Virus genome (UHGV): UHGV-0332040
DNA: 14,032 bases
From: a virus
Direction: 5' to 3' (one strand)
Shown in pieces: positions 555 to 9,938 of this stretch (position 1 is the stretch's first letter; every line of letters begins with the position of its first letter). The notes below the pieces were generated by a model. The model was not told the DNA's origin and made no database searches. It saw only the letters and a list, made by a program, of their open reading frames with translations. The position numbers and the translations under genes were made by a program.

Positions 555-1241
555 TTAGCGACCAGCACGTTTGCCAGCGGAGCGCTGCGCAACCAGAGCG
601 CGGTATTGAATGTCGTACTGGCGATGGCCGGGGCCATACCCTGATTGCTGCGCCCACTGCGAAAGCTGATCATACGCTGCAATAAACTCAGCATGAGACA
701 TACCAACAGGTTGCGAGGCAGGCTGGCCGTATGGGTTCCCCTGTGATGGGACATAACCAGTCGCAGTGCCTGCGGCCATACGCTCTTGCAGATAATGAAC
801 CGCCCGCTGCATCTGCGCAGGGTCGCCAGACATAACCATCCGTTCAAGGGTTGATTGCGTCCCGGCGTCGAGCGTGCCAGCGTACTGCAACATCGCGTCA
901 ACTGTACCCTGCCCTAGCTGGCTTTCGACAGACTGGTGAAACTGCCCCATCAGCCCATGAAGTTCAGGAGTCAACTCAACAGTAGTGCCATCCTGTAATT
1001 GCAGTGTGTCGCCCACTTGTGCAGCAACATCAATCTGCTGGTCTTGCTGGTTGGCAAAGTTACTTTCGCTCCAGCTTTGATTAATGTTCGCTGGCTGCGT
1101 TTTCAGGAAATCAGCATCAGGTGTTGTCTGGTCGAATCGGCTAGCGCCGTTGTCAGCACCTACAGGTGCGGCCATGTACGGCGATTGCTGCGGCGCAGTA
1201 TCAGCGCCCGAAAGATATGGATTAACATTCTGGTCAGCCAT
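555..1241 (-). CDS. Hypothetical Q/N/D-rich acidic protein (228 aa)
   Basis: Long ORF in the same orientation as the operon. Its ATG lies 2 nt after the upstream stop (GCATAATCATG), and a GAGG sits about 10 nt upstream. I recognised no family motif. Confidence 0.6.
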   Translation of the reverse strand: MADQNVNPYLSGADTAPQQSPYMAAPVGADNGASRFDQTTPDADFLKTQPANINQSWSESNFANQQDQQIDVAAQVGDTLQLQDGTTVELTPELHGLMGQFHQSVESQLGQGTVDAMLQYAGTLDAGTQSTLERMVMSGDPAQMQRAVHYLQERMAAGTATGYVPSQGNPYGQPASQPVGMSHAEFIAAYDQLSQWAQQSGYGPGHRQYDIQYRALVAQRSAGKRAGR

Positions 1242-3141: not shown

Positions 3142-5031
3142 TCAGAGGAAGCGGGAGATGTAACCCCAATTGCAGTTTTCAGGGCGGTACAACGCTGCCA
3201 GCTCATCAGGTACACCGGACGGCACCGGGGCAGAGTCGGCGTCATAGGTGATGGGGTCGCCATACAGAGCCAACGATGACCACAGCAGAAAAGCACGGGC
3301 AGGTTGACCGTCACGCCCGGCACGTCCGATCATCTGAACTAAATCGGGCAGGTCTTCGGGAACATAAGTGACAATTACGTTACGCACGCCAGAGATATCA
3401 GCCCCCAGCCCGAAGGCTTTAGTAGCAATCAGAACCGCGCCGGGCGTGCTGGCAAACCACGCAGCGTTAGCGTGACGCTGGTCGCGGCTCAGTCGCTCAA
3501 CGTCAGAATGGTAAGGCCGGGCGCGGTCTCCCAGTTCGTTGAGATACGCATACAGCATCTTGATACTGTCCACCATCACCAGCGTCTTCTCATCCAGCGG
3601 GAGGGCATCGACCAGACCAACGGCAGCCCGGCGCGTAGTTGCGCACTGCTGAACAGGAATAAGCTGGATGTTTTCACGGGCAGCACTGGCGCGGTAGGTG
3701 AGGAACTCGCCACGACAGCCAAGCTCTTTCATCAAGCCAGACTCATCACCTTTTCGCAGGGTCGCAGTAAACGCGCACCGCTGAGCATCCGGGAAGGCAT
3801 TTTTCAGGGTGTGTTTCATTGCAGGGAAAGCGTCCCGGAACTCCCATTCATCAACGGTATGAACCTCGTCAATGATAAATCTGTCCACACCAGCGGCCAT
3901 CAGCGCAGCCAGCACCTGATTGCCCGGCACCAGATGCTCAGGTGAAACTACGGCAACGTGGAAAGCGCCAGCAGCCAACCCCGCAAGCTGTTGCGCATTG
4001 CGTCGCCTCGGCAGCTTGTCGCCAAAGGCAACAGCGTGAACGCCAGTTTCTAGCAACTGCTGTAACACCTGCTGCTTGATGGTGTTTGTAGGCACAACAA
4101 TAACGGTCAGACCGTCATCAGAATCAGATTCAAATTGCAGGGCATAGGTGAATGCAGCCGTCTTTCCGTACCCGGTTGGCAGTACGGCCAATACATCGCG
4201 GTCACGGGCAAATACGGCGGCAGCTACGTCCTGCTGGCCGGGTCTCCAGTCTCTGCCATCTAGCGGTGGTAACGGTACGAATGCCGGGCGGTCGCATTGC
4301 TCCAGCTCGCGGAACCTGTACGGCGCGGTAACCAGCGGCGGGATGGACGGCGGCAGGCCAGCACCCCCAACGTCACAATGCAGATTCAGCGTATTGAATT
4401 TATCATCCGTGGGTTTCAGCTCACCGCACCACAACTGACGGAAAGCCGGGCAGTCACCCAGTCGCGTAAAGTCAGCATGGCGCATAGCTTCCAGCTTGCT
4501 CATGCCGCGACTGATACGACGCACGATCTTCTCATCGCAAATCAGAAACTCACGGCAGGCTTTGAGGAAGGCATTCTGCCCGGTTGTCGCTTCCGGGATG
4601 GAGTGCTCGCGCGGTTTAAGCGCAGCGTCATCAACGCGAACGCCGGGGAAATCTGGCGGCAGCGGCTCGGCGTACCGGGCAGGCTTTTTGTTTAGCCACA
4701 TCTCCAGCTCAGCGCGGCGGCAGTGGATTGCATCGCCCGGCTGGATAATCTGGCGCAACCCGGCATCAGCGCGGCGGGAATGTCGCTTGCGGCCAATTCC
4801 ATTCGCCTCTTTCCATTCACGGAACGACATAACTGAACCATCTGCATTGTAGAAATACTGCCCGGAAACGGTGTTAAGCGCTGCCTTCACTGGTCGCTGT
4901 TTAACAGGGCATAACTTGGAATGAGGTATAACGATCTTATCCGCAACCAGTTGCTGAGCATCCGCAGGCTCGGTGTTCAGCGGTTCGGCGTCAGCGGCCA
5001 GCGTAAGCAAGCGGTTTAAATTGGTTGGCAT
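3142..5031 (-). CDS. RecQ-family SF2 DNA helicase with an unassigned ~260-aa N-terminal domain (629 aa)
   Basis: Helicase motifs run in order: WRPGQQ (Q-motif-like), LPTGYGKT (motif I), IIDEVH (motif II, DExH) and FTATL (motif III). The end YHSD...LIATKAFGLGADISGVRNVIVTYVPEDLPDLVQMIGRAGRDG matches RecQ motifs V/VI (GRAGRDG). GGAG lies 9 nt upstream of the ATG at 5031. Confidence 0.85.
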   Translation of the reverse strand: MPTNLNRLLTLAADAEPLNTEPADAQQLVADKIVIPHSKLCPVKQRPVKAALNTVSGQYFYNADGSVMSFREWKEANGIGRKRHSRRADAGLRQIIQPGDAIHCRRAELEMWLNKKPARYAEPLPPDFPGVRVDDAALKPREHSIPEATTGQNAFLKACREFLICDEKIVRRISRGMSKLEAMRHADFTRLGDCPAFRQLWCGELKPTDDKFNTLNLHCDVGGAGLPPSIPPLVTAPYRFRELEQCDRPAFVPLPPLDGRDWRPGQQDVAAAVFARDRDVLAVLPTGYGKTAAFTYALQFESDSDDGLTVIVVPTNTIKQQVLQQLLETGVHAVAFGDKLPRRRNAQQLAGLAAGAFHVAVVSPEHLVPGNQVLAALMAAGVDRFIIDEVHTVDEWEFRDAFPAMKHTLKNAFPDAQRCAFTATLRKGDESGLMKELGCRGEFLTYRASAARENIQLIPVQQCATTRRAAVGLVDALPLDEKTLVMVDSIKMLYAYLNELGDRARPYHSDVERLSRDQRHANAAWFASTPGAVLIATKAFGLGADISGVRNVIVTYVPEDLPDLVQMIGRAGRDGQPARAFLLWSSLALYGDPITYDADSAPVPSGVPDELAALYRPENCNWGYISRFL

Positions 5032-5052: not shown

Positions 5053-5490
5053 TTAAATACTACGCGCCCAAGCTAAATCTTCGGGTGTCCGACTTTCGAT
5101 TAACGCTAACTGCCAGCGTAAGTAATCCTCATGTTCTTTGGTGTATCGGGGAATACCTATAGGATTTTTCACAGCGTCCGGGTTAGTCCTCGCGACTTCC
5201 CTGCAATCTCGGTCGAAAGCCCAGCGGGCAACTTCCACCGATTCGTAATCCGTAAATCGGTACGGCCTTGTGCGGGAACGTACACGCCAGACAACTTGCC
5301 CTAATTCGTGGATGTATATGCCGCAAAGTTCATCCGGGCTTGGGTGATACAATGGCTCCCCATAATTCTGGCGCATGAACTTCACAAACTTTTGATTGCG
5401 GCGGGCACGCCGTGCTTTTTCGCGTCGCTCCTCGGCTTCATACTCTTTTTGAATGGCGGCACGGTCTACCGGGATAAGTGTTTTGCTCAT
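5053..5490 (-). CDS. Hypothetical protein (145 aa), first gene of the helicase operon
   Basis: The start is trimmed to the ATG at 5490 (MSKTLIPVD...), which has GGAG about 8 nt upstream. The track ORF extension to 5667 runs through the iteron-like repeats and has no RBS. Basic EERREKARRARRNQK stretch; no family recognised. Confidence 0.6.
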   Translation of the reverse strand: MSKTLIPVDRAAIQKEYEAEERREKARRARRNQKFVKFMRQNYGEPLYHPSPDELCGIYIHELGQVVWRVRSRTRPYRFTDYESVEVARWAFDRDCREVARTNPDAVKNPIGIPRYTKEHEDYLRWQLALIESRTPEDLAWARSI

Positions 5491-5560
5491 ACAGTGATCT
5501 CCAGAAATTAATGTGAGTTTGGAACGGGGCGCAGGACGGAAGCGCCGGGAGTGTGGCAGT

Positions 5561-5914
5561 CTGTCCTCCTTAGTAGTTACCATCATTGCAATGGCGTCGG
5601 AGTTCTGTCTCTCTTTAGTAGTGATCTTCATCCAGTAATTTGGATTAAATGCAGACACGGCGGGCATTGCAGCGAGATGGAGAGTAGGCGGGCTTGCGGT
5701 TTCAGTCTGCCTTAGTACAAGTTTCTAGTGGTCGGTAGCCTTTCCCTTATTAGTAGCTCTCATTTATCCGGGGCTTGTCTTCCCACACAGTAGCCGTCTT
5801 CTAAAGCAACCACACCACAATCCACTACTGGCAAGGAGTTAGCAGACACGGTGATGTAGGCTACTCAAGTGTGGATTTGTAGGCGTTTTATAGTATCTGT
5901 CCTTCTTATTAGAC
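5561..5914. repeat. Array of six degenerate iteron-like repeats (plus-strand consensus about CTGTCYTCYTTAGTAG)
   Basis: Copies lie at 5561-5576, 5605-5621, 5705-5718, 5739-5756, 5774-5793 and 5897-5914, all in the same orientation. Three are spaced about 35 bp apart. A second perfect 10-mer, GCAGACACGG, occurs at 5651-5660 and 5842-5851. Confidence 0.6.
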
Positions 5915-5980
5915 ACCTTTAAATTTCATTAATAAATACAGTTAGTTAAACGGTTATCTTTATTACTTATAAATTTCACA

Positions 5981-6002
5981 GATCAATAAATTAAAATTGA
6001 TC
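5981..6002. repeat. Perfect 7-bp inverted repeat carrying two GATC sites (GATCAAT-N8-ATTGATC) inside an AT-rich block
   Basis: Read directly from the sequence. The surrounding region, about 5915-6050, is strongly AT-rich by eye. Confidence 0.7.
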
Positions 6003-6015
6003 GGAATTATCAGCT

Positions 6016-6044
6016 TTAATTTTCTTGACAGCTATTTGTATAAT
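6016..6044 (+). promoter_or_regulatory. Candidate sigma-70 promoter (perfect -10 TATAAT at 6039-6044, weak -35 TTAATT at 6016-6021)
   Basis: The TATAAT is preceded by TG at 6037-6038 in an AT-rich context. The TTGACA at 6025-6030 is only 8 bp from the -10, so it cannot be its -35. No plus-strand ORF lies downstream. Confidence 0.3.
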
Positions 6045-6050
6045 GGTTTT

Positions 6051-6190
6051 AAGAAGTTGTATCGGAGTGAGCGACTGGCAGTGAGCGTAGCGAACGATAA
6101 GCCAGTCGGCGAAGAACGAAGAGTATGAGATGACTTGTCATCGAATACGATGAGTGATTGAGCGGTACGAACGGAGATACGCTGTATAAC
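6051..6190 (+). ncRNA. Candidate structured purine-rich RNA downstream of the TATAAT promoter
   Basis: Stop-rich, with no ORF on either strand apart from the low-complexity 64-aa track ORF on the minus strand. There is an 8-bp perfect stem CGACTGGC/GCCAGTCG (6072-6079 / 6101-6108). There is a near-palindromic hairpin at 6123-6148 and a possible closing helix GTATC/GATAC (6059-6063 / 6176-6180). The motifs GAGTGAGCG and CGAACGA repeat. Ends and strand are not established. Confidence 0.3.
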
Positions 6191-6222
6191 AGTTAGAACA
6201 GTTAACAAGCTGATTAATGCTT

Positions 6223-6387
6223 TCAATGATTATCTGAATCAGTGTTATCAATTCCGAAATAACTCTTCCTCTCCTGTATTGATTCAATCATTTCTTTCAT
6301 TTCAAGAATCACTACCAGCTCAGCTAATAACCGTCTCAGTTCAACATTTGAATCATTAGCACGACACTTATTTTCTGAGTATTCCAT
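6223..6387 (-). CDS. Small charged helical protein (54 aa), below the ORF-track cutoff
   Basis: Hand translation gives MEYSENKCRANDSNVELRRLLAELVVILEMKEMIESIQERKSYFGIDNTDSDNH. GGGAG lies 8 nt upstream of the ATG at 6387. A candidate promoter lies upstream. The gene is AT-rich, moron-like in composition. Confidence 0.45.
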   Translation of the reverse strand: MEYSENKCRANDSNVELRRLLAELVVILEMKEMIESIQERKSYFGIDNTDSDNH

Positions 6388-6432
6388 ACGGTCAACTCCC
6401 TACGGTATAAGTCCATTCCAATCCGTTCACAG

Positions 6433-6460
6433 ATTACATTGCTGAATGATCATCAGACAA
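6433..6460 (-). promoter_or_regulatory. Candidate sigma-70 promoter for the 54-codon ORF (TTGTCT-16 nt-TGTAAT) with a GATC-centred near-palindrome in the spacer
   Basis: On the minus strand the -35 is TTGTCT (6455-6460) and the -10 is TGTAAT (6433-6438). The spacer overlaps the near-palindrome CTGAATGATCATCAG (6442-6456). The motif GTGAACGGATTG (6419-6430) sits at the predicted transcription start. Confidence 0.35.
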
Positions 6461-6479
6461 GTGGCAGTCATCATCACCA

Positions 6480-6920
6480 AGTTAGAGTCGTCTCGCTACA
6501 TATCCCCGCCGGATTGCCAGCGCGGCTAACACGGTTGTGAGGAGCGCCGAGCATCACAGCGGACGCAGGCCGATGAACGAGCCGTAGGTGAGTGAAAGCG
6601 GACTCGCGGACGCGAGAAGCGCAGCAGCAGGCGGCGACTGATAAACGAGCCAGACAGGTGAGTGCAAGCAGGCGTAAGCACTGCACCGTTGAGAGGTGTG
6701 GAGACGGCGGAACGTCTCCGCGTTAGGGAGGTGGATTTGGGGAGGATGTGCAAGGCACACCTCGCTCCACCCACGGGGTGTCGGTGGGTAGGGGTATAAC
6801 GCTAATTGGTTAAGTGTACACATGTACGCTGAAATCATTAAAAGCCTATAGAAACAGCATGTAACCCAGCACCACGACATAACCAATTATCGTTGAACCC
6901 CCTCCCCGGCCCCACCCGGA
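6480..6920. ncRNA. Candidate large structured non-coding element (GC- and purine-rich on the plus strand)
   Basis: There is no credible ORF; the three minus-strand frames are open only because that strand is pyrimidine-rich. Five strong hairpins lie at 6603-6616, 6657-6687, 6700-6719, 6742-6763 and 6769-6789. Two ~30-nt degenerate repeat units lie 68 nt apart (6572-6601 and 6640-6672). G-runs at 6726-6745 and 6775-6794 face a C-run at 6898-6919. AT-rich sequence flanks the island. Confidence 0.3.
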
Positions 6921-7089
6921 ATTTTTCAGTGATGAATCACTTCACAATCTGATCTCGATGTTCATCGTCTGGCACGGCTAAAGCCCCGCCATCTCTTCAC
7001 ATCGAGAGCCGCAAGTAATACGAAAATACATTATAAATCATAGCATTACGACATCGCGCATAACATAACGCTCTGAAATTAATACGAAA

Positions 7090-7207
7090 GCTGTAGGTCA
7101 TCCATCACCCACAGCCCAGTAACGGCCAGTGCTGGCACCTCATTTGGCTGTAGGTCAGCCCGACCCCACCGCCCAATAACCCCACCCGGCAGCAATGGCA
7201 CGGCACC
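7090..7207. repeat. Tandem pair of ~50-60 bp degenerate direct repeats starting GCTGTAGGTCA
   Basis: Unit 1 is 7090-7139 and unit 2 is 7147-7207. Both begin GCTGTAGGTCA and end ...GGCACC. TAATACGAAA is duplicated just upstream at 7016-7025 and 7080-7089. Confidence 0.65.
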
Positions 7208-7329
7208 AGACGCAGCGTAACGATCTCTGAGTTGATAAATCACTTAGGGCAGCGTAACCCACACCCAACGGCTCACATCCTCGCAGAGAGGCTCACAGAT
7301 CACCTCGTGACATTTCACAGCATCAACCC

Positions 7330-7953
7330 TCAGACGCTGGCAGCCAGCTCACGCTTAATGCGGTAGAACGTTGCCCGGCTTATCCCGGCAGCTTTCATGA
7401 TGCGCTCCGGTTTCACACCCTGCGCCAGCATTTCCCTGACGGTCTCGCGAGCGGCGGCATCCTTCTGACTCCCACGATAAAGCCCCTCAGCTTTGGCTCG
7501 TTCAATGCCCTGCCGCTGGCGCATCAGTCGCGTCTCGTAGTCCACGCGGGCCATTGTAGCGAGGATATCGATCAGCATTGCGTTAACGGCTCTGAGGATG
7601 CCGCTGGTTAGCTCTGACGCGGTTTCGTTCAGCAACTGCCACGAGGTTGGCAGGTCAACGGCGACGATCACCAGCCCCTTATCCTGAATCCTCTGTTTCA
7701 GTGTCGCCCATTCCTTTTGTGTCAGGCGGCTTAGCCTGTCTATGCTTTCGACAAGTAGAACGTCGCCAGCCTCCGCCTCACCCAGCAGGCGCATCAGTTC
7801 AGGACGCTCCAGCCGCGCACCGCTGGCGTTCTCGATGTATCGCGCAGCAATAGACCAACCACGCTCATTAGCGAAATCCTCCAGCGCAGGAACGGCACGG
7901 TCGGCGTGTTGCTCGGCGGTGGATGCCCTGGCATACAGACGAACGTTATTCAT
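7330..7953 (-). CDS. Small serine recombinase (resolvase/invertase family, 207 aa)
   Basis: The N-terminal RLYARASTAEQ carries the catalytic-serine motif. VLLVESIDRLSRL is the resolvase core motif. ISRATFYRIKRE is the C-terminal HTH. GGAGGG lies 6 nt upstream of the ATG at 7953. Confidence 0.9.
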   Translation of the reverse strand: MNNVRLYARASTAEQHADRAVPALEDFANERGWSIAARYIENASGARLERPELMRLLGEAEAGDVLLVESIDRLSRLTQKEWATLKQRIQDKGLVIVAVDLPTSWQLLNETASELTSGILRAVNAMLIDILATMARVDYETRLMRQRQGIERAKAEGLYRGSQKDAAARETVREMLAQGVKPERIMKAAGISRATFYRIKRELAASV

Positions 7954-8062
7954 GATTCACCCTCCAAATCTCAGTGAAGTATCACATCCCGACATGAAGG
8001 AGATCACACTTAAAAACCGTGGTCAATAGGGTATAAAATAAATTTGATTGCGACAGCTTAGG

Positions 8063-8210
8063 CACATCACAATGCGGTATACCCGGATGAGACAGAGACA
8101 GCCAGCGGCAGACTGGCACCGAGTCACAGCAAAACCCCGGCGCACCCAGCGAACGCAGCGCAAAGCGCACACAGGAGATCAGCACGGCACCGCCACGATC
8201 TCGAAATCAC
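8063..8210. repeat. Right-hand copy of a direct repeat that also occurs left of the recombinase gene (6938-7243)
   Basis: Shared motifs are collinear. CACWTCACAAT lies at 6938 and 8063. CGGCAG-N3-TGGCAC lies at 7187 and 8105. GCACGGCACC lies at 7198 and 8182. ACGATCTC lies at 7220 and 8195. AAATCAC lies at 7237 and 8204. Confidence 0.6.
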
Positions 8211-8536
8211 AAAGGCGTTGAATCAAACATTGCAACCGCAGCAGTAACCAGCCAGCATTTCGCGCCTGCAACGGTTGTCTCGGATGAGCAAAATCTTAGG
8301 GTTTTCTCAGCGACCCCTGACGCGCGGGCACGCACATGCGCACGGGGGCGCGGGCGAGCTATACAGTTGAGGGAGGGGCAACCATAAGCGTGCAATTTTT
8401 CAAGCCGGGACTTTTAACAGTGGGATTGTGAGGCTATTTTGCATTCAGAGAGTGAGGCTGTAGGGTAGCTCCCCTTGAACCAGATAACGCTAAGCTAACC
8501 ATTTTCCCCACTGCTTAAGCCACTTTGCGTTGACGT

Positions 8537-9037
8537 TCAGCACCCCACAGCAGCATTATCCGGCATCAGAAACGGAATCAGTTTAGTATCACCATGCACA
8601 TATAACGGGTGCATAGGCTCTCCCGTTGCGTTAATTTTAAAACACTTCGTATCTACAGGAAGGAACGCCCGTACTACGGCAGAGCGTTTCAGGTGCCGCC
8701 CTTCATTCCCCCACGCAGCAACAACGATACCAGCACCAGCTATCAATTCTGCCAGATACTTATCATTATCCGCCCCGACAGGCTCCGGGAATCTCATCAT
8801 CTCAAAGCGGTCAGTACACACATACGCGAACAGGTTCGCGATACGTACCCCCCCGAAGCCCCAGCTCTGCGCAAATGAGATACAACGTTTCAGTGTGGGG
8901 TCGTCAAGCTCTGCGTCCGCATACGATGGATTCAAACCGATGAAAAGAGCATAAGGCTTTGCAGCGTCCCACGTTCTGGAAATAGCGTAACGGTACTTCC
9001 CGCACACAGAGAAGATCGCGTCTTTGTTCACATCCAT
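8537..9037 (-). CDS. DUF1643-family protein (166 aa)
   Basis: From memory, this is the strong family pattern of DUF1643 proteins. It includes CGKYRY...R.W, LFIGLNPSYAD, DDPTLKRCISFAQSWGFGG, NLFAY, AAWGN and HPLY...TKLIPF. The start ATG at 9037 lies 2 nt after the stop of the upstream small ORF, with GAGGG as its SD. Confidence 0.85.
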   Translation of the reverse strand: MDVNKDAIFSVCGKYRYAISRTWDAAKPYALFIGLNPSYADAELDDPTLKRCISFAQSWGFGGVRIANLFAYVCTDRFEMMRFPEPVGADNDKYLAELIAGAGIVVAAWGNEGRHLKRSAVVRAFLPVDTKCFKINATGEPMHPLYVHGDTKLIPFLMPDNAAVGC

Positions 9038-9039
9038 GA

Positions 9040-9180
9040 TTAACCCTCTTCACTACGTTTATCATCCCGCATCGAGTCAATGAAGTCGCGTTGCTCCTGC
9101 GTCAGTTCCAGATTTTCTAACAACTTGTCTAATTCTATTTCGGCGGATTCTTGCTTCTGCAAACGCTCTTTGTCAGCCAT
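9040..9180 (-). CDS. Small highly charged coiled-coil-like protein (46 aa), below the ORF-track cutoff
   Basis: Hand translation gives MADKERLQKQESAEIELDKLLENLELTQEQRDFIDSMRDDKRSEEG. Its stop TAA (9040-9042) is followed 2 nt later by the ATG of the DUF1643 gene. An AT-rich promoter-like region lies upstream. Its own SD is weak. Confidence 0.5.
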   Translation of the reverse strand: MADKERLQKQESAEIELDKLLENLELTQEQRDFIDSMRDDKRSEEG

Positions 9181-9205
9181 GCCAAGCCCCACAAGATTAG
9201 GATTA

Positions 9206-9233
9206 ATCTTAGGCTACAAAATGATCAATACAA
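9206..9233 (-). promoter_or_regulatory. Candidate promoter of the small-ORF/DUF1643 operon (TTGTAT-16 nt-TAAGAT)
   Basis: On the minus strand the -35 is TTGTAT (9228-9233) and the -10 is TAAGAT (9206-9211). The motif CAATCCGTT (9238-9246, minus strand) abuts the -35. Confidence 0.3.
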
Positions 9234-9785
9234 ATGCAACGGATTGTTATTTATTACAGATACAAGAATTAAGGGGGAAATAATCAGGAGGGGATGCCCC
9301 GGACTGCCAGCACAGAACCGGGGCGAATGCGGACGGAGCCACCCATCAGCCGAATAACCATAGCCTATTTTCTGGCAATAGCAAGCCATAAGCGCCGTGT
9401 TGGGTACACTCAGCAGCAGCGCCATCGGCGCATCATCATCTCAATCTTGTACAATCATCCGTTCACTTATCGAGTACCGTTCATTTATGGCACGGTGAAC
9501 ACCACGGCAGAGCCAGCCCCTTTCCCGGACTGGTTAGGCTTCCCAACATCAGCTCGTTTATCCGTGGCGTGTCATCACGACAGGCGGGAACCGGACACCG
9601 CGCTAAGTGCGGAACAGATGAATGTTTCAGGGAATCATGCCGGGTGAACGGCTTTCAGTTCATGTTGGACTATCGCGGTATGACCAGTGGAACGACCGCC
9701 AGCGCTTTGCTAAACTCCCTGTTCACCGTTCAACAAATCGCGGCAACTATCAGGGTAAATAGCGGTACTTTGGTCACATCACCTT

Positions 9786-9875
9786 AGAGCTAACTCATTG
9801 AGTTATAAGGCTTTTAATGGGCTGGAGCGGGCGAAGGGAATCGAACCCTCATAGCTAACCCATTGAATTGTGAAC
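9786..9875. repeat. Imperfect 25-bp direct repeats bracketing the att core (AGCTAACYCATTGARTT)
   Basis: The copies at 9786-9810 and 9851-9875 match at about 18 of 25 positions by hand alignment. A further 9-mer, GCGGTACTT, lies at 9762-9770 and 9890-9898. Confidence 0.65.
9823..9850 (-). other. att core: 28-nt copy of the 3' end (T-arm, acceptor 3' strand, CCA) of tRNA-Gly(CCC), glyU type; not a complete tRNA
   Basis: The minus strand reads GAGGGTTCGATTCCCTTCGCCCGCTCCA. As I recall it, this matches the 3' end of E. coli glyU. Sequence 5' of it on the minus strand (9851 onward) cannot form the acceptor, D or anticodon arms. Confidence 0.85.
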
Positions 9876-9938
9876 CAAAATAAGTAATCGCGGTACTTAT
9901 CCCGGTAGTTGGTAGCGGTAGATTACAAGGTAATTACC

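Follow-up and report, generated by a model that had tools for sequence, protein, structure and literature searches.

Introduction

To our knowledge, the known families of phage satellites (P4-like, PICI, cf-PICI, PLE and PICMI) mimic cos or pac sites. In the literature available to us, an incomplete library that gives no proof of novelty, we found no description of a satellite of Bonnellvirus or of other T7-like helpers. Relatives of T7 possess conserved terminal sequences and repeats of 100–300 bp (PGT2 genome paper, PMC5773715). Here we describe positions 5491–9938 of the virus genome UHGV-0332040, a DNA of 14,032 nucleotides that is called the window throughout. An initial annotation had described this gene-poor interval as a single cargo region between the replication operon and the integrase gene. 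We consider it probable that the interval is instead mainly the cis-acting backbone of a 14-kb satellite parasitising Bonnellvirus-like, T7-like phages, and not one cargo island. In the best-supported reading the satellite has here copied the genome end and the control region of a T7-like helper, with a recombinase cassette, a small cargo slot and attP as additions.

Results and Discussion

Compared with integrated copies the window is an attP-joined circular permutation of an integrative element of ~14 kb, which is found at tRNA-Gly, tRNA-Thr or tRNA-Leu in Escherichia coli, Enterobacter and Trabulsiella. In E. coli some match is present in 149 of 5426 complete genomes, among them that of the enteropathogenic E. 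coli (EPEC) strain E2348/69. The element encodes a helicase operon with a RecQ-like DEAD/Helicase_C helicase as replication protein, a tyrosine integrase, HNH and Endo VII-like nucleases, a major capsid protein and a scaffold-like protein. Its capsid protein shows 56% identity to the capsid of phage megetsur (E 7e-131) and only 27% to that of PGT2, a more distant T7 relative, and is the sole clear protein match to megetsur. Neither portal, terminase nor tail proteins were recognised using PHROGs, Pfam and tblastn against three phage genomes, with several small open reading frames (ORFs) left unassigned. The element thus shows an integrase with att site and both integrated and excised forms, an incomplete set of virion genes and, in the match of 8331–8409 to the unique Bonnellvirus pre-terminus/terminus site, a putative packaging signal shared with a helper, as expected for a phage satellite, apparently of an undescribed family.

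The scaffold-like protein (555–1241, minus strand, 228 aa) has its similarity confined to the last ~110 residues of the helper scaffold, itself 410 aa long (30% identity, E 5e-4), and such a shortened scaffold could be a means of making smaller satellite capsids.

Homology to the genome end of a probable helper

Among 50,697 phage records, and short matches of the tRNA-Gly att fragment aside, 8331–8409 is the only part of the whole 4.4 kb that has a phage match. Eight records match, of which six are classified as Bonnellvirus or highly similar and two are unclassified Enterobacter phages; the matched phages of 42 kb belong to Bonnellvirus (Autographiviridae) or are close to it and include megetsur, aldrigsur, altidsur, mellemsur, Kc261 and others. 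Two features of the window are concerned:

8371–8409, minus strand: pre-terminus sequence CCCGGCTTGAAAAATTGCACGCTTATGGTTGCCCCTCCC, common to Bonnellvirus phages, at a sharp backbone/cargo boundary
~8100–8370, minus strand: predicted terminal-repeat equivalent, starting TCAACTGTATAGCTCGCCCGCGCCCCCGTGCGC at 8370, with a presumed inner end at ~8100 and no ORF

In the phages the site is unique per genome and unannotated, starts ~45 nt after the endolysin gene as the last late gene and forms the beginning of a gene-free region of ~1.5 kb. The linear record of J8-65, the type Bonnellvirus, has an annotated repeat_region of 259 bp at 1–259 and 40723–40981, and in a search with the megetsur sequence from just past the core the first base aligned to J8-65 position 1. 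In a four-way alignment the right repeat of J8-65 begins with TCGACCC directly after ..GGGCCTCCC, and at the same columns the minus strand of the window reads ..TTGCCCCTCCC followed by TCAACTG, which places the equivalent terminus at window position 8370 on the minus strand; the corresponding base in megetsur is 40026. The pattern TC..N22-25..CCCCC(A/G)T is common to the ends of T7 (TCTCAC..N..CCCCCATAG) and PGT2 (TCCAAC..N..CCCCCGTAG) and to the window (TCAAC..N..CCCCCGTG), and compared with J8-65 position 1 and the left ends of PGT2 and T7 the window carries the conserved terminal sequence of a T7-type repeat start. The terminal repeat of PGT2 was verified as 260 bp long, and J8-65, megetsur, PGT2 and T7 all have ATCT(A/G)T at once or within ~12 nt after the repeat.

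The 44-nt core 8366–8409 is present in all 12 genome loci and is nearly invariant over 54 satellite loci, the other 42 being metagenome contigs that were found by an exact-pattern scan for the core. Its two flanks are swapped independently, and on the right the sequence switches abruptly between elements at 8410. From the homology to the phage genome end, 8371–8409 can be read as a probable packaging (terminase recognition) signal and ~8100–8370 as a putative terminal repeat. Because of the core match and the capsid identity, Bonnellvirus-like phages are the likely helpers.

In the mechanism that we propose, the helper terminase would recognise 8371–8409 on satellite concatemers and cut at ~8370, one 14-kb unit with a terminal repeat of ~270 bp would be packaged, and small capsids would be formed from the satellite capsid and the short scaffold-like protein. 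The stretch 5491–7329 would be the counterpart of the helper's gene-free early control region of ~1.2–1.4 kb, with post-repeat DNA, an AT-rich promoter block and a leader and possibly also with the satellite origin, and the serine recombinase would be a cassette set into this gene-free region.

The gene-free region and the serine recombinase

Nearly all relatives show an unannotated gap of 1.2–1.5 kb between the helicase operon and a small serine recombinase, which is followed by a short variable segment up to the tRNA. In the window the following features make up this part:

5491–5920, minus strand: leader without genes that precedes the replication (helicase) operon; a cluster of CCTTAGTAG-like repeats, CTACTAAGG on the minus strand, occupies 5568, 5613, 5710, 5745 and 5904
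5900–6225, plus strand: AT-rich module with GATC sites, near-invariant in eight distinct relatives
6484–6625, no strand assigned: non-coding block, sharply bounded on the left and shared by most relatives whose flank is long enough
6626–6898, no strand assigned: variable insert with a long inverted repeat (6786–6815 / 6877–6906) and local hairpins
6899–7157, minus strand: conserved block directly 3' of the recombinase cassette, aligned from 27 distinct sequences
7330–7953, minus strand: small serine recombinase of the resolvase/invertase type (Pfam Resolvase, HTH_7)
7954–8099, no strand assigned: recombinase upstream region with a plus-strand promoter-like site at 8010–8039 and the near-palindrome CGGTATACCCG at 8075–8085

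The non-coding modules 5497–5764, 5910–6340, 6484–6625, 6899–7157 and 8261–8409 are 84–98% identical where genes are ~80% identical. Since they are conserved to this degree, differ by indels of 1–2 nt and have no Pfam matches, they represent selected non-coding DNA and not pseudogenes.

Fourteen sister satellites including that of E2348/69 carry 180–270 bp with 82–97% identity to megetsur 40339–40584, where in the phage the GT-rich DNA after the repeat meets the AT-rich promoter block. In the E2348/69 locus this helper-like piece lies between the helicase operon and a 6484-type block, and its orientation relative to the core is as in the phage. The window is without this piece and has its own module 5900–6225 at that position. 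Within this module a promoter scan gave the plus-strand promoter-like sequence TTAATT-17-TATAAT at 6016–6046, and a downstream hairpin (GACTGGC/GCCAGTC) is kept by one compensatory change.

Conservation differs among the other parts. The leader 5491–5920 is partly conserved and occurs in two sequence types; four of the five window-wide matches to its repeat (at most one mismatch) lie within 190 nt, and CTACTAAGG-type repeats recur in the leader of the E2348/69 satellite. The block 6484–6625 was found in 26 loci (18 distinct) with 74–87% identity and single-base indels, and 6626–6898 is replaced by other sequence in most relatives. The block 6899–7157 contains the recombinase terminator (stem 7090–7097 / 7108–7115 with a T-run on the minus strand) and an AT-rich stretch with a minus-strand promoter-like site at ~7066, and its consensus fold reaches −65 kcal/mol on the minus strand versus −39 kcal/mol on the plus strand. 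A hairpin at 6953–6961 / 6999–7007 shows two compensatory changes in the relatives L011, L021 and L031 and is kept by unrelated sequence in L033.

Early promoters of the phage comprise four copies of TTGACA-N17-TGTAAT. In megetsur each intergenic region of the early part (635–2071) closes with a hairpin, after which come GGCAAT(N)ATGCC and a ..GAGG.. ribosome-binding site, a repeated punctuation motif and possibly a processing site. The sequence GCTGTAGG (T7-promoter-like TAATACGAAAGCTGTAGG at 7080–7097) was rejected as a promoter of a phage RNA polymerase: it is neither repeated nor positioned as a promoter in three Bonnellvirus genomes, and its copy at 7090 is the terminator stem. The sequence TATCACTATAGACACTTTCAT of the sister satellites was rejected as a general promoter, since it has only two copies per phage, arranged as an inverted pair: one in the left-end region and one just past the RNA polymerase gene (megetsur 40536 plus and 18877 minus; Kc261 41473 plus and 19797 minus), both changed together in Kc261. 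The satellite of E2348/69 has one perfect copy (L011 8675, minus), and TATCACTATAGACACTTTCAT looks like a specific protein-binding or promoter site.

The closest solved relatives of the recombinase are Sin/Bin3 and gamma-delta resolvase (distant). An upstream recombinase match was obtained in 42 of 55 loci, and in all 42 the gene starts 312–550 nt left of the core end (window 8409). Two recombinase types exist that are 28% identical to each other, and in the alignment the adjacent 100–150 nt co-vary with the type. As candidate recombination sites only short imperfect repeats were detected (TCAGTGAWGWATCAC at 6926, 7971 and 8578; CGGTATACCCGGATGAG-like at 8075 and 8272); no convincing flanking pair and no repeat common to both recombinase types were found. 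The constant position near the predicted terminus suggests, as a speculation, that the recombinase may circularise or resolve linear repeat-ended DNA.

Coding content, motifs and folding

Inside the interval ~32% of the DNA is coding (~1.44 kb of 4.45 kb, counted from ORF coordinates) compared to ~96% elsewhere in the window. The low coding density seen in the initial annotation is therefore real, and the gene-poor state is kept in all relatives found. A six-frame ORF listing combined with Pfam again supported four ORFs only, and neither NCBI's annotated record of an E. coli copy with 99% identity nor gene calls on ten other assemblies placed an additional gene in the interval. Besides the recombinase and the two ORFs of the cargo slot described below this set includes:

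6223–6387, minus strand: 54-aa ORF, present in the annotation of E. coli 5735 and among the gene calls of other assemblies

In the alignment of relatives this protein retains the motif LLAE(L/I)V.I.E despite diverged DNA, and judged from its sequence it is probably a real small protein; it had no match in Pfam or PADLOC. The GC profile agrees with the proposed alternation of AT-rich and GC-rich blocks, with values of 0.35–0.39 at 5701–6450, 0.60 at 6451–6750, 0.59 at 8101–8400, 0.43 at 9001–9300 and 0.56 at 9301–9600. In agreement with ORF-free blocks, none of the reading frames of at least 40 aa within them has a Pfam match, and the aligned blocks of relatives differ by 1–2-nt indels. Searches for tandem repeats and tRNA genes returned none.

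At the left border, the ORF 5053–5667 (minus strand) can be read as 204 aa and is called by annotation pipelines as 145 aa from the ATG at 5490. The shorter form is more likely, because the N-terminal extension of the longer one crosses the CTACTAAGG repeats, which then read as TTKE repeats, and several relatives lack the gene. A perfect 14-nt inverted repeat, CTACCGGGATAAGT / ACTTATCCCGGTAG, lies nearly at the two borders of the interval: one arm (5466–5479) falls on the 5' end of the 145-aa ORF and the other (9895–9908) directly before int, with a 13-nt near-copy at 7379–7391 inside the recombinase gene. With ~0.4 pairs of this kind expected by chance over the window, it may be a coincidence.

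The initial annotation had also seen a vocabulary of short motifs shared by hairpin-dense blocks, and this part fared less well. GAGTGAG has 3 copies against 1.3 expected (3 reached in 31 of 200 shuffles) and GCGGAM has 11 against 17.6 expected, so neither stands out. Only GCYGTAGG is mildly enriched (4 copies against 0.78 expected, reached in 1 of 200 shuffles). Of its copies two lie in a single 34-nt direct repeat, and the one at 7090 forms a stem arm of the minus-strand terminator of the recombinase. The vocabulary is mostly chance. Dense hairpins are confined to 6480–6925 (z −2.3 on the plus and −3.2 on the minus strand) and do not extend to the other two blocks. When relatives were examined for covariation it was present in 9388–9568, whereas the consensus fold of 6484–6625 is weak on both strands. 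The view that the region fits no described system no longer holds, since a good part of it can be assigned, by its match to a phage terminus (8100–8409) and as a probable attP (~9455–9908).

The cargo slot

To the right of the core the content of the elements varies:

~8410–9290, minus strand: variable cargo with the DUF1643 protein, a small ORF and an AT-rich upstream region
8537–9037, minus strand: DUF1643 protein (Pfam DUF1643, E 2e-38)
9040–9192, minus strand: small ORF, 50 aa long with GTG as start or 46 aa with ATG

Of the proposed 4.4-kb cargo region only these ~0.9 kb are swappable, while 5491–8409 is backbone shared by the element family. Within this limit a cargo hotspot next to integrase and att does exist: right of 8409 the content varies between conserved flanks, and relatives carry TIR, DUF3800, DUF4145 or DUF1643 genes, the TIR-domain gene being part of the cargo of one relative. 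The DUF1643 protein and the 50-aa ORF have no PADLOC match and thus could not be assigned to a known defence system; among the titles and abstracts retrieved under the term DUF1643 none mentioned a role in defence.

The probable attP region

The right end of the interval leads into the integrase gene:

~9455–9908, no strand assigned: probable attP with a tRNA-Gly 3' fragment (~9818–9853, tRNA T-arm match) as core
9388–9568, plus strand: conserved structured element with five helices including a long-range closing helix
9909–11165, plus strand: tyrosine integrase (Pfam)

Seven of the 23 GTTCAY copies of the window lie in 9461–9875, and these clustered GTTCAY/RTGAAC repeats look like integrase arm sites. 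Because they surround the tRNA-Gly fragment and because 9624–9853 is 93–96% identical in other elements inserted at tRNA-Gly, ~9455–9908 fits an attP. In integrated copies the integrase is located at the opposite end of the element.

The structured element 9388–9568 shows 77–87% identity in elements with other att sites and a 38%-identical integrase, which weakens integrase-specific arm sites as its sole explanation. Its model contains 37 pairs with 97.7% of cells paired and four compensatory pairs, a number reached in 2 of 500 shuffles, and G-U pairs that are invariant on the plus-strand reading only; a divergent variant (L047) retains helix 5 and the outer helix. Run against 0.68 Mb of related loci, the covariance model of the element found its own training set and one weak divergent copy only. 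In the circular form the element stands upstream of int, across attP. Phage lambda sib and the integration-dependent immunity of mycobacteriophages are known examples of elements across attP that act on int only in the circular form. The arrangement here is alike, as 9388–9568 and int share the plus strand in the circular form and are at opposite element ends when integrated. A role on int would be by analogy, the element also occurs with a 38%-identical integrase, and lambda sib, unlike 9388–9568, is located downstream of int and acts via RNase III.

The 3' flank of the structured element (9552–9568, GCTCGTTTATCCGTGGC), which is conserved, is 88% complementary to 6634–6650 (GCGACTGATAAACGAGC) and also resembles CTCATTTATCCGGGGC at 5759–5782 in the replication-operon leader. 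These similarities may be due to chance or may point to RNA-RNA interaction or recognition by a shared protein.

Further observations concern the element family. The helicase (3142–5031, minus strand) gives a full-length match to the PADLOC 'DpdF' model PDLC02858 (1053 bits) and 108 bits with NCBIfam DpdF, which is below the cut-off; PDLC02858 may derive from satellite replication helicases and could then cause false Dpd defence calls. In E. coli 5735 (14372–18877 of the locus) a second island with its own integrase, DUF4145 and other genes is arranged in tandem between the satellite and tRNA-Gly, and one att site has therefore been used repeatedly. NZ_CP074582.1, listed as a Klebsiella pneumoniae plasmid, carries the chromosomal genes sodB and purR and is probably a misassigned chromosomal contig; beside sodB lies an element that combines a serine recombinase with a 9388–9568-type structured block, which indicates a non-tRNA insertion site for a related element.

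Alternative explanations

Several observations weigh against reading the interval as the copy of a helper genome end. Direct phage homology in the window is confined to 8331–8409, and 5491–7329 has none at E ≤ 1e-3, so that its equivalence to the early region of the helper rests on position, composition and the sister elements. The relative L004 lacks 5550–7330 entirely and has its recombinase directly upstream of the helicase operon; this module is thus not essential for the family. The satellite's matches to host-type promoters are weak (8010–8039 and 6016–6046, plus strand; ~7066, minus strand). The post-repeat motif ..ATCTGTCTC has only a loosely similar counterpart in the window, GGCTG followed directly by TCTCTGTCTC, ~270 nt from 8370, and it is this motif from which the repeat length of ~270 bp is estimated, integrated and circular forms having a single copy. 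The satellite has no terminase, portal or tail gene, and a mimic of the small terminase as a means of redirection is absent too. Finally, virion-form DNA was not detected (the IMG/VR scan for the core gave no hit and all contigs with the capsid gene were integrated copies), and for this reason we infer the cut site, the repeat length and packaging from the phage ends.

Part of the interval could be better described as a satellite replication origin with an operator region, which would occupy mainly 5491–6480, with the CTACTAAGG repeats as iteron-like sites and the invariant AT-rich stretch as unwinding element, both bound by proteins of the helicase operon, and the rest as transcriptional insulation. 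This is compatible with a helper-derived control region and overlaps it. PICI-type satellites have iteron or AT-rich origins beside rep; here, five clustered repeats (5568–5912) adjoin a block of ~130 bp with 35–39% GC, GATC sites and an inverted repeat, and the AT-rich module is near-invariant among satellites with a common helicase. However, the repeats are irregularly spaced (39–155 nt), conservation of their region, which falls into two types, is lower than that of the AT-rich block, satellites of the L004 and E2348/69 types have homologous helicases but no AT-rich module, and the roles in binding and replication are read from the sequence. As the best explanation of this part an origin appears somewhat doubtful. 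For the core of 39–79 bp shared with the phages, two alternatives to a packaging signal have to be considered, a scar left by recombination or a signal for transcription, be it a late terminator, a promoter or a processing site. The core does follow the last late gene by ~45 nt, where a terminator could sit, and its packaging role would be a sequence-based assignment in every phage, but it possesses neither a stable hairpin with T-run nor a sigma-70 match, and as it occurs once per phage genome a general phage promoter was rejected. Moreover the annotated terminal repeat begins at the very next base, the core stays near-invariant in 54 loci despite independently swapped flanks, and we judge a scar or transcription signal to be quite improbable.

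The ORF-free blocks might furthermore be genes for novel structured non-coding RNAs in regulation or defence, transcribed from the AT-rich promoter-like blocks, for example as plus-strand RNAs from ~6050 and ~8045. The plus-strand promoter-like sites at 6016–6046 and 8010–8039 do point into purine-rich blocks, and local hairpins with compensatory changes exist at 6072–6108 and 6953–7007 as well as in type-B relatives, where a UUCG-loop hairpin upstream of the core has CCCAGCC/GGCTGGG versus CCTCGCC/GGCGAGG. The five helices of 9388–9568 with four covarying pairs and G-U pairs on the plus strand only would also fit an RNA. On the other hand, Rfam 15 covariance models yielded nothing credible, either over the whole window at E ≤ 1 or in 5900–7330 and 9280–9700 even at E ≤ 10. 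Three stretches fold like shuffled sequences (8090–8409 with z +0.5 and +0.4, 9290–9650 with z 0.05 and 6053–6225 of the AT-rich module with z −0.5), the fold of 6484–6625 is unconvincing on either strand, and 8100–8409 is accounted for by homology to a phage DNA terminus. Taken together, genes for such RNAs are an unlikely general explanation. Decayed remnants of protein genes, for which the long spurious ORFs of 110 aa (6554–6886) and 117 aa (9294–9647) could speak, are very improbable: all 22 ORFs in or overlapping the blocks lack a Pfam match, indels break the frames between close relatives, several independent annotations place no genes there, and the blocks are more conserved than the adjacent genes.

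Conclusion

In summary, a helper-derived genome end at 8100–8409 explains the conserved core of the interval best, and for this element family long gene-free DNA should be annotated as functional backbone, neither as cargo nor as decay. If true, a satellite copying a direct-terminal-repeat end would extend satellite biology to T7-like phages, a major group among the lytic coliphages used in therapy and biotechnology. Testable predictions concern the genus of the helper, cutting at window 8370 and an essential role for the 39-bp signal, and the conserved non-coding elements 5900–6225 and 9388–9568 and the obligatory serine recombinase are leads worth testing. A more far-reaching proposal joins all parts: undescribed capsid-encoding satellites of virulent Bonnellvirus coliphages (in E. 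coli including EPEC E2348/69) would have a working T7-type end with packaging signal, ~270-bp repeat and entry/early promoters, a recombinase that circularises or resolves the injected DNA for insertion by the tyrosine integrase, and 9388–9568 gating int across attP in the circular form only. In this complete form it is unlikely to be correct.

Among satellites, the segment between 8409 and att resembles the defence hotspots next to int, e.g. of P4-like satellites, in being swapped among relatives, but the slot comprises ~0.9 kb instead of 4.4 kb and its DUF1643 protein has no PADLOC match. The element is distinct from P4-like satellites in having a RecQ-like helicase instead of the P4 alpha primase and in its capsid and packaging homology to Autographiviridae; sid, psu and delta did not turn up in general scans, which were not aimed at these genes. 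It is distinct from cf-PICIs as well, as only capsid, scaffold-like, HNH and Endo VII-like genes were found and no portal, protease, head-tail or terminase genes. With P4, whose cos is that of P2, with cos and pac SaPIs and PICIs and with cf-PICIs it shares the integrative lifestyle, a size of about one third of the helper (14.0 versus 41–42.5 kb), its own replication module, a helper packaging sequence and a capsid homologue. In contrast to these, the satellite would here depend on a virulent podovirus of the T7-like kind, whose DNA has direct terminal repeats, and not on a temperate cos or pac phage.

Compared with the ends of Autographiviridae (J8-65 259 bp, PGT2 260 bp, T7 160 bp), the satellite site is part of a 14-kb integrative element with tyrosine integrase and attP, its repeat body is not homologous beyond ~40 nt, a serine recombinase interrupts the gene-free region, and two repeat copies on the packaged DNA are a prediction by analogy. 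Alike are the following features: over the 39 nt ahead of the repeat the satellite is near-identical to Bonnellvirus, at the aligned base the terminus signature TC..N22..CCCCC(A/G)T begins and is followed by ~270 bp of gene-free GC-rich DNA, and AT-rich promoter-like blocks come next in more than 1 kb of gene-free sequence, as in the 1.46 kb before the first gene of J8-65.

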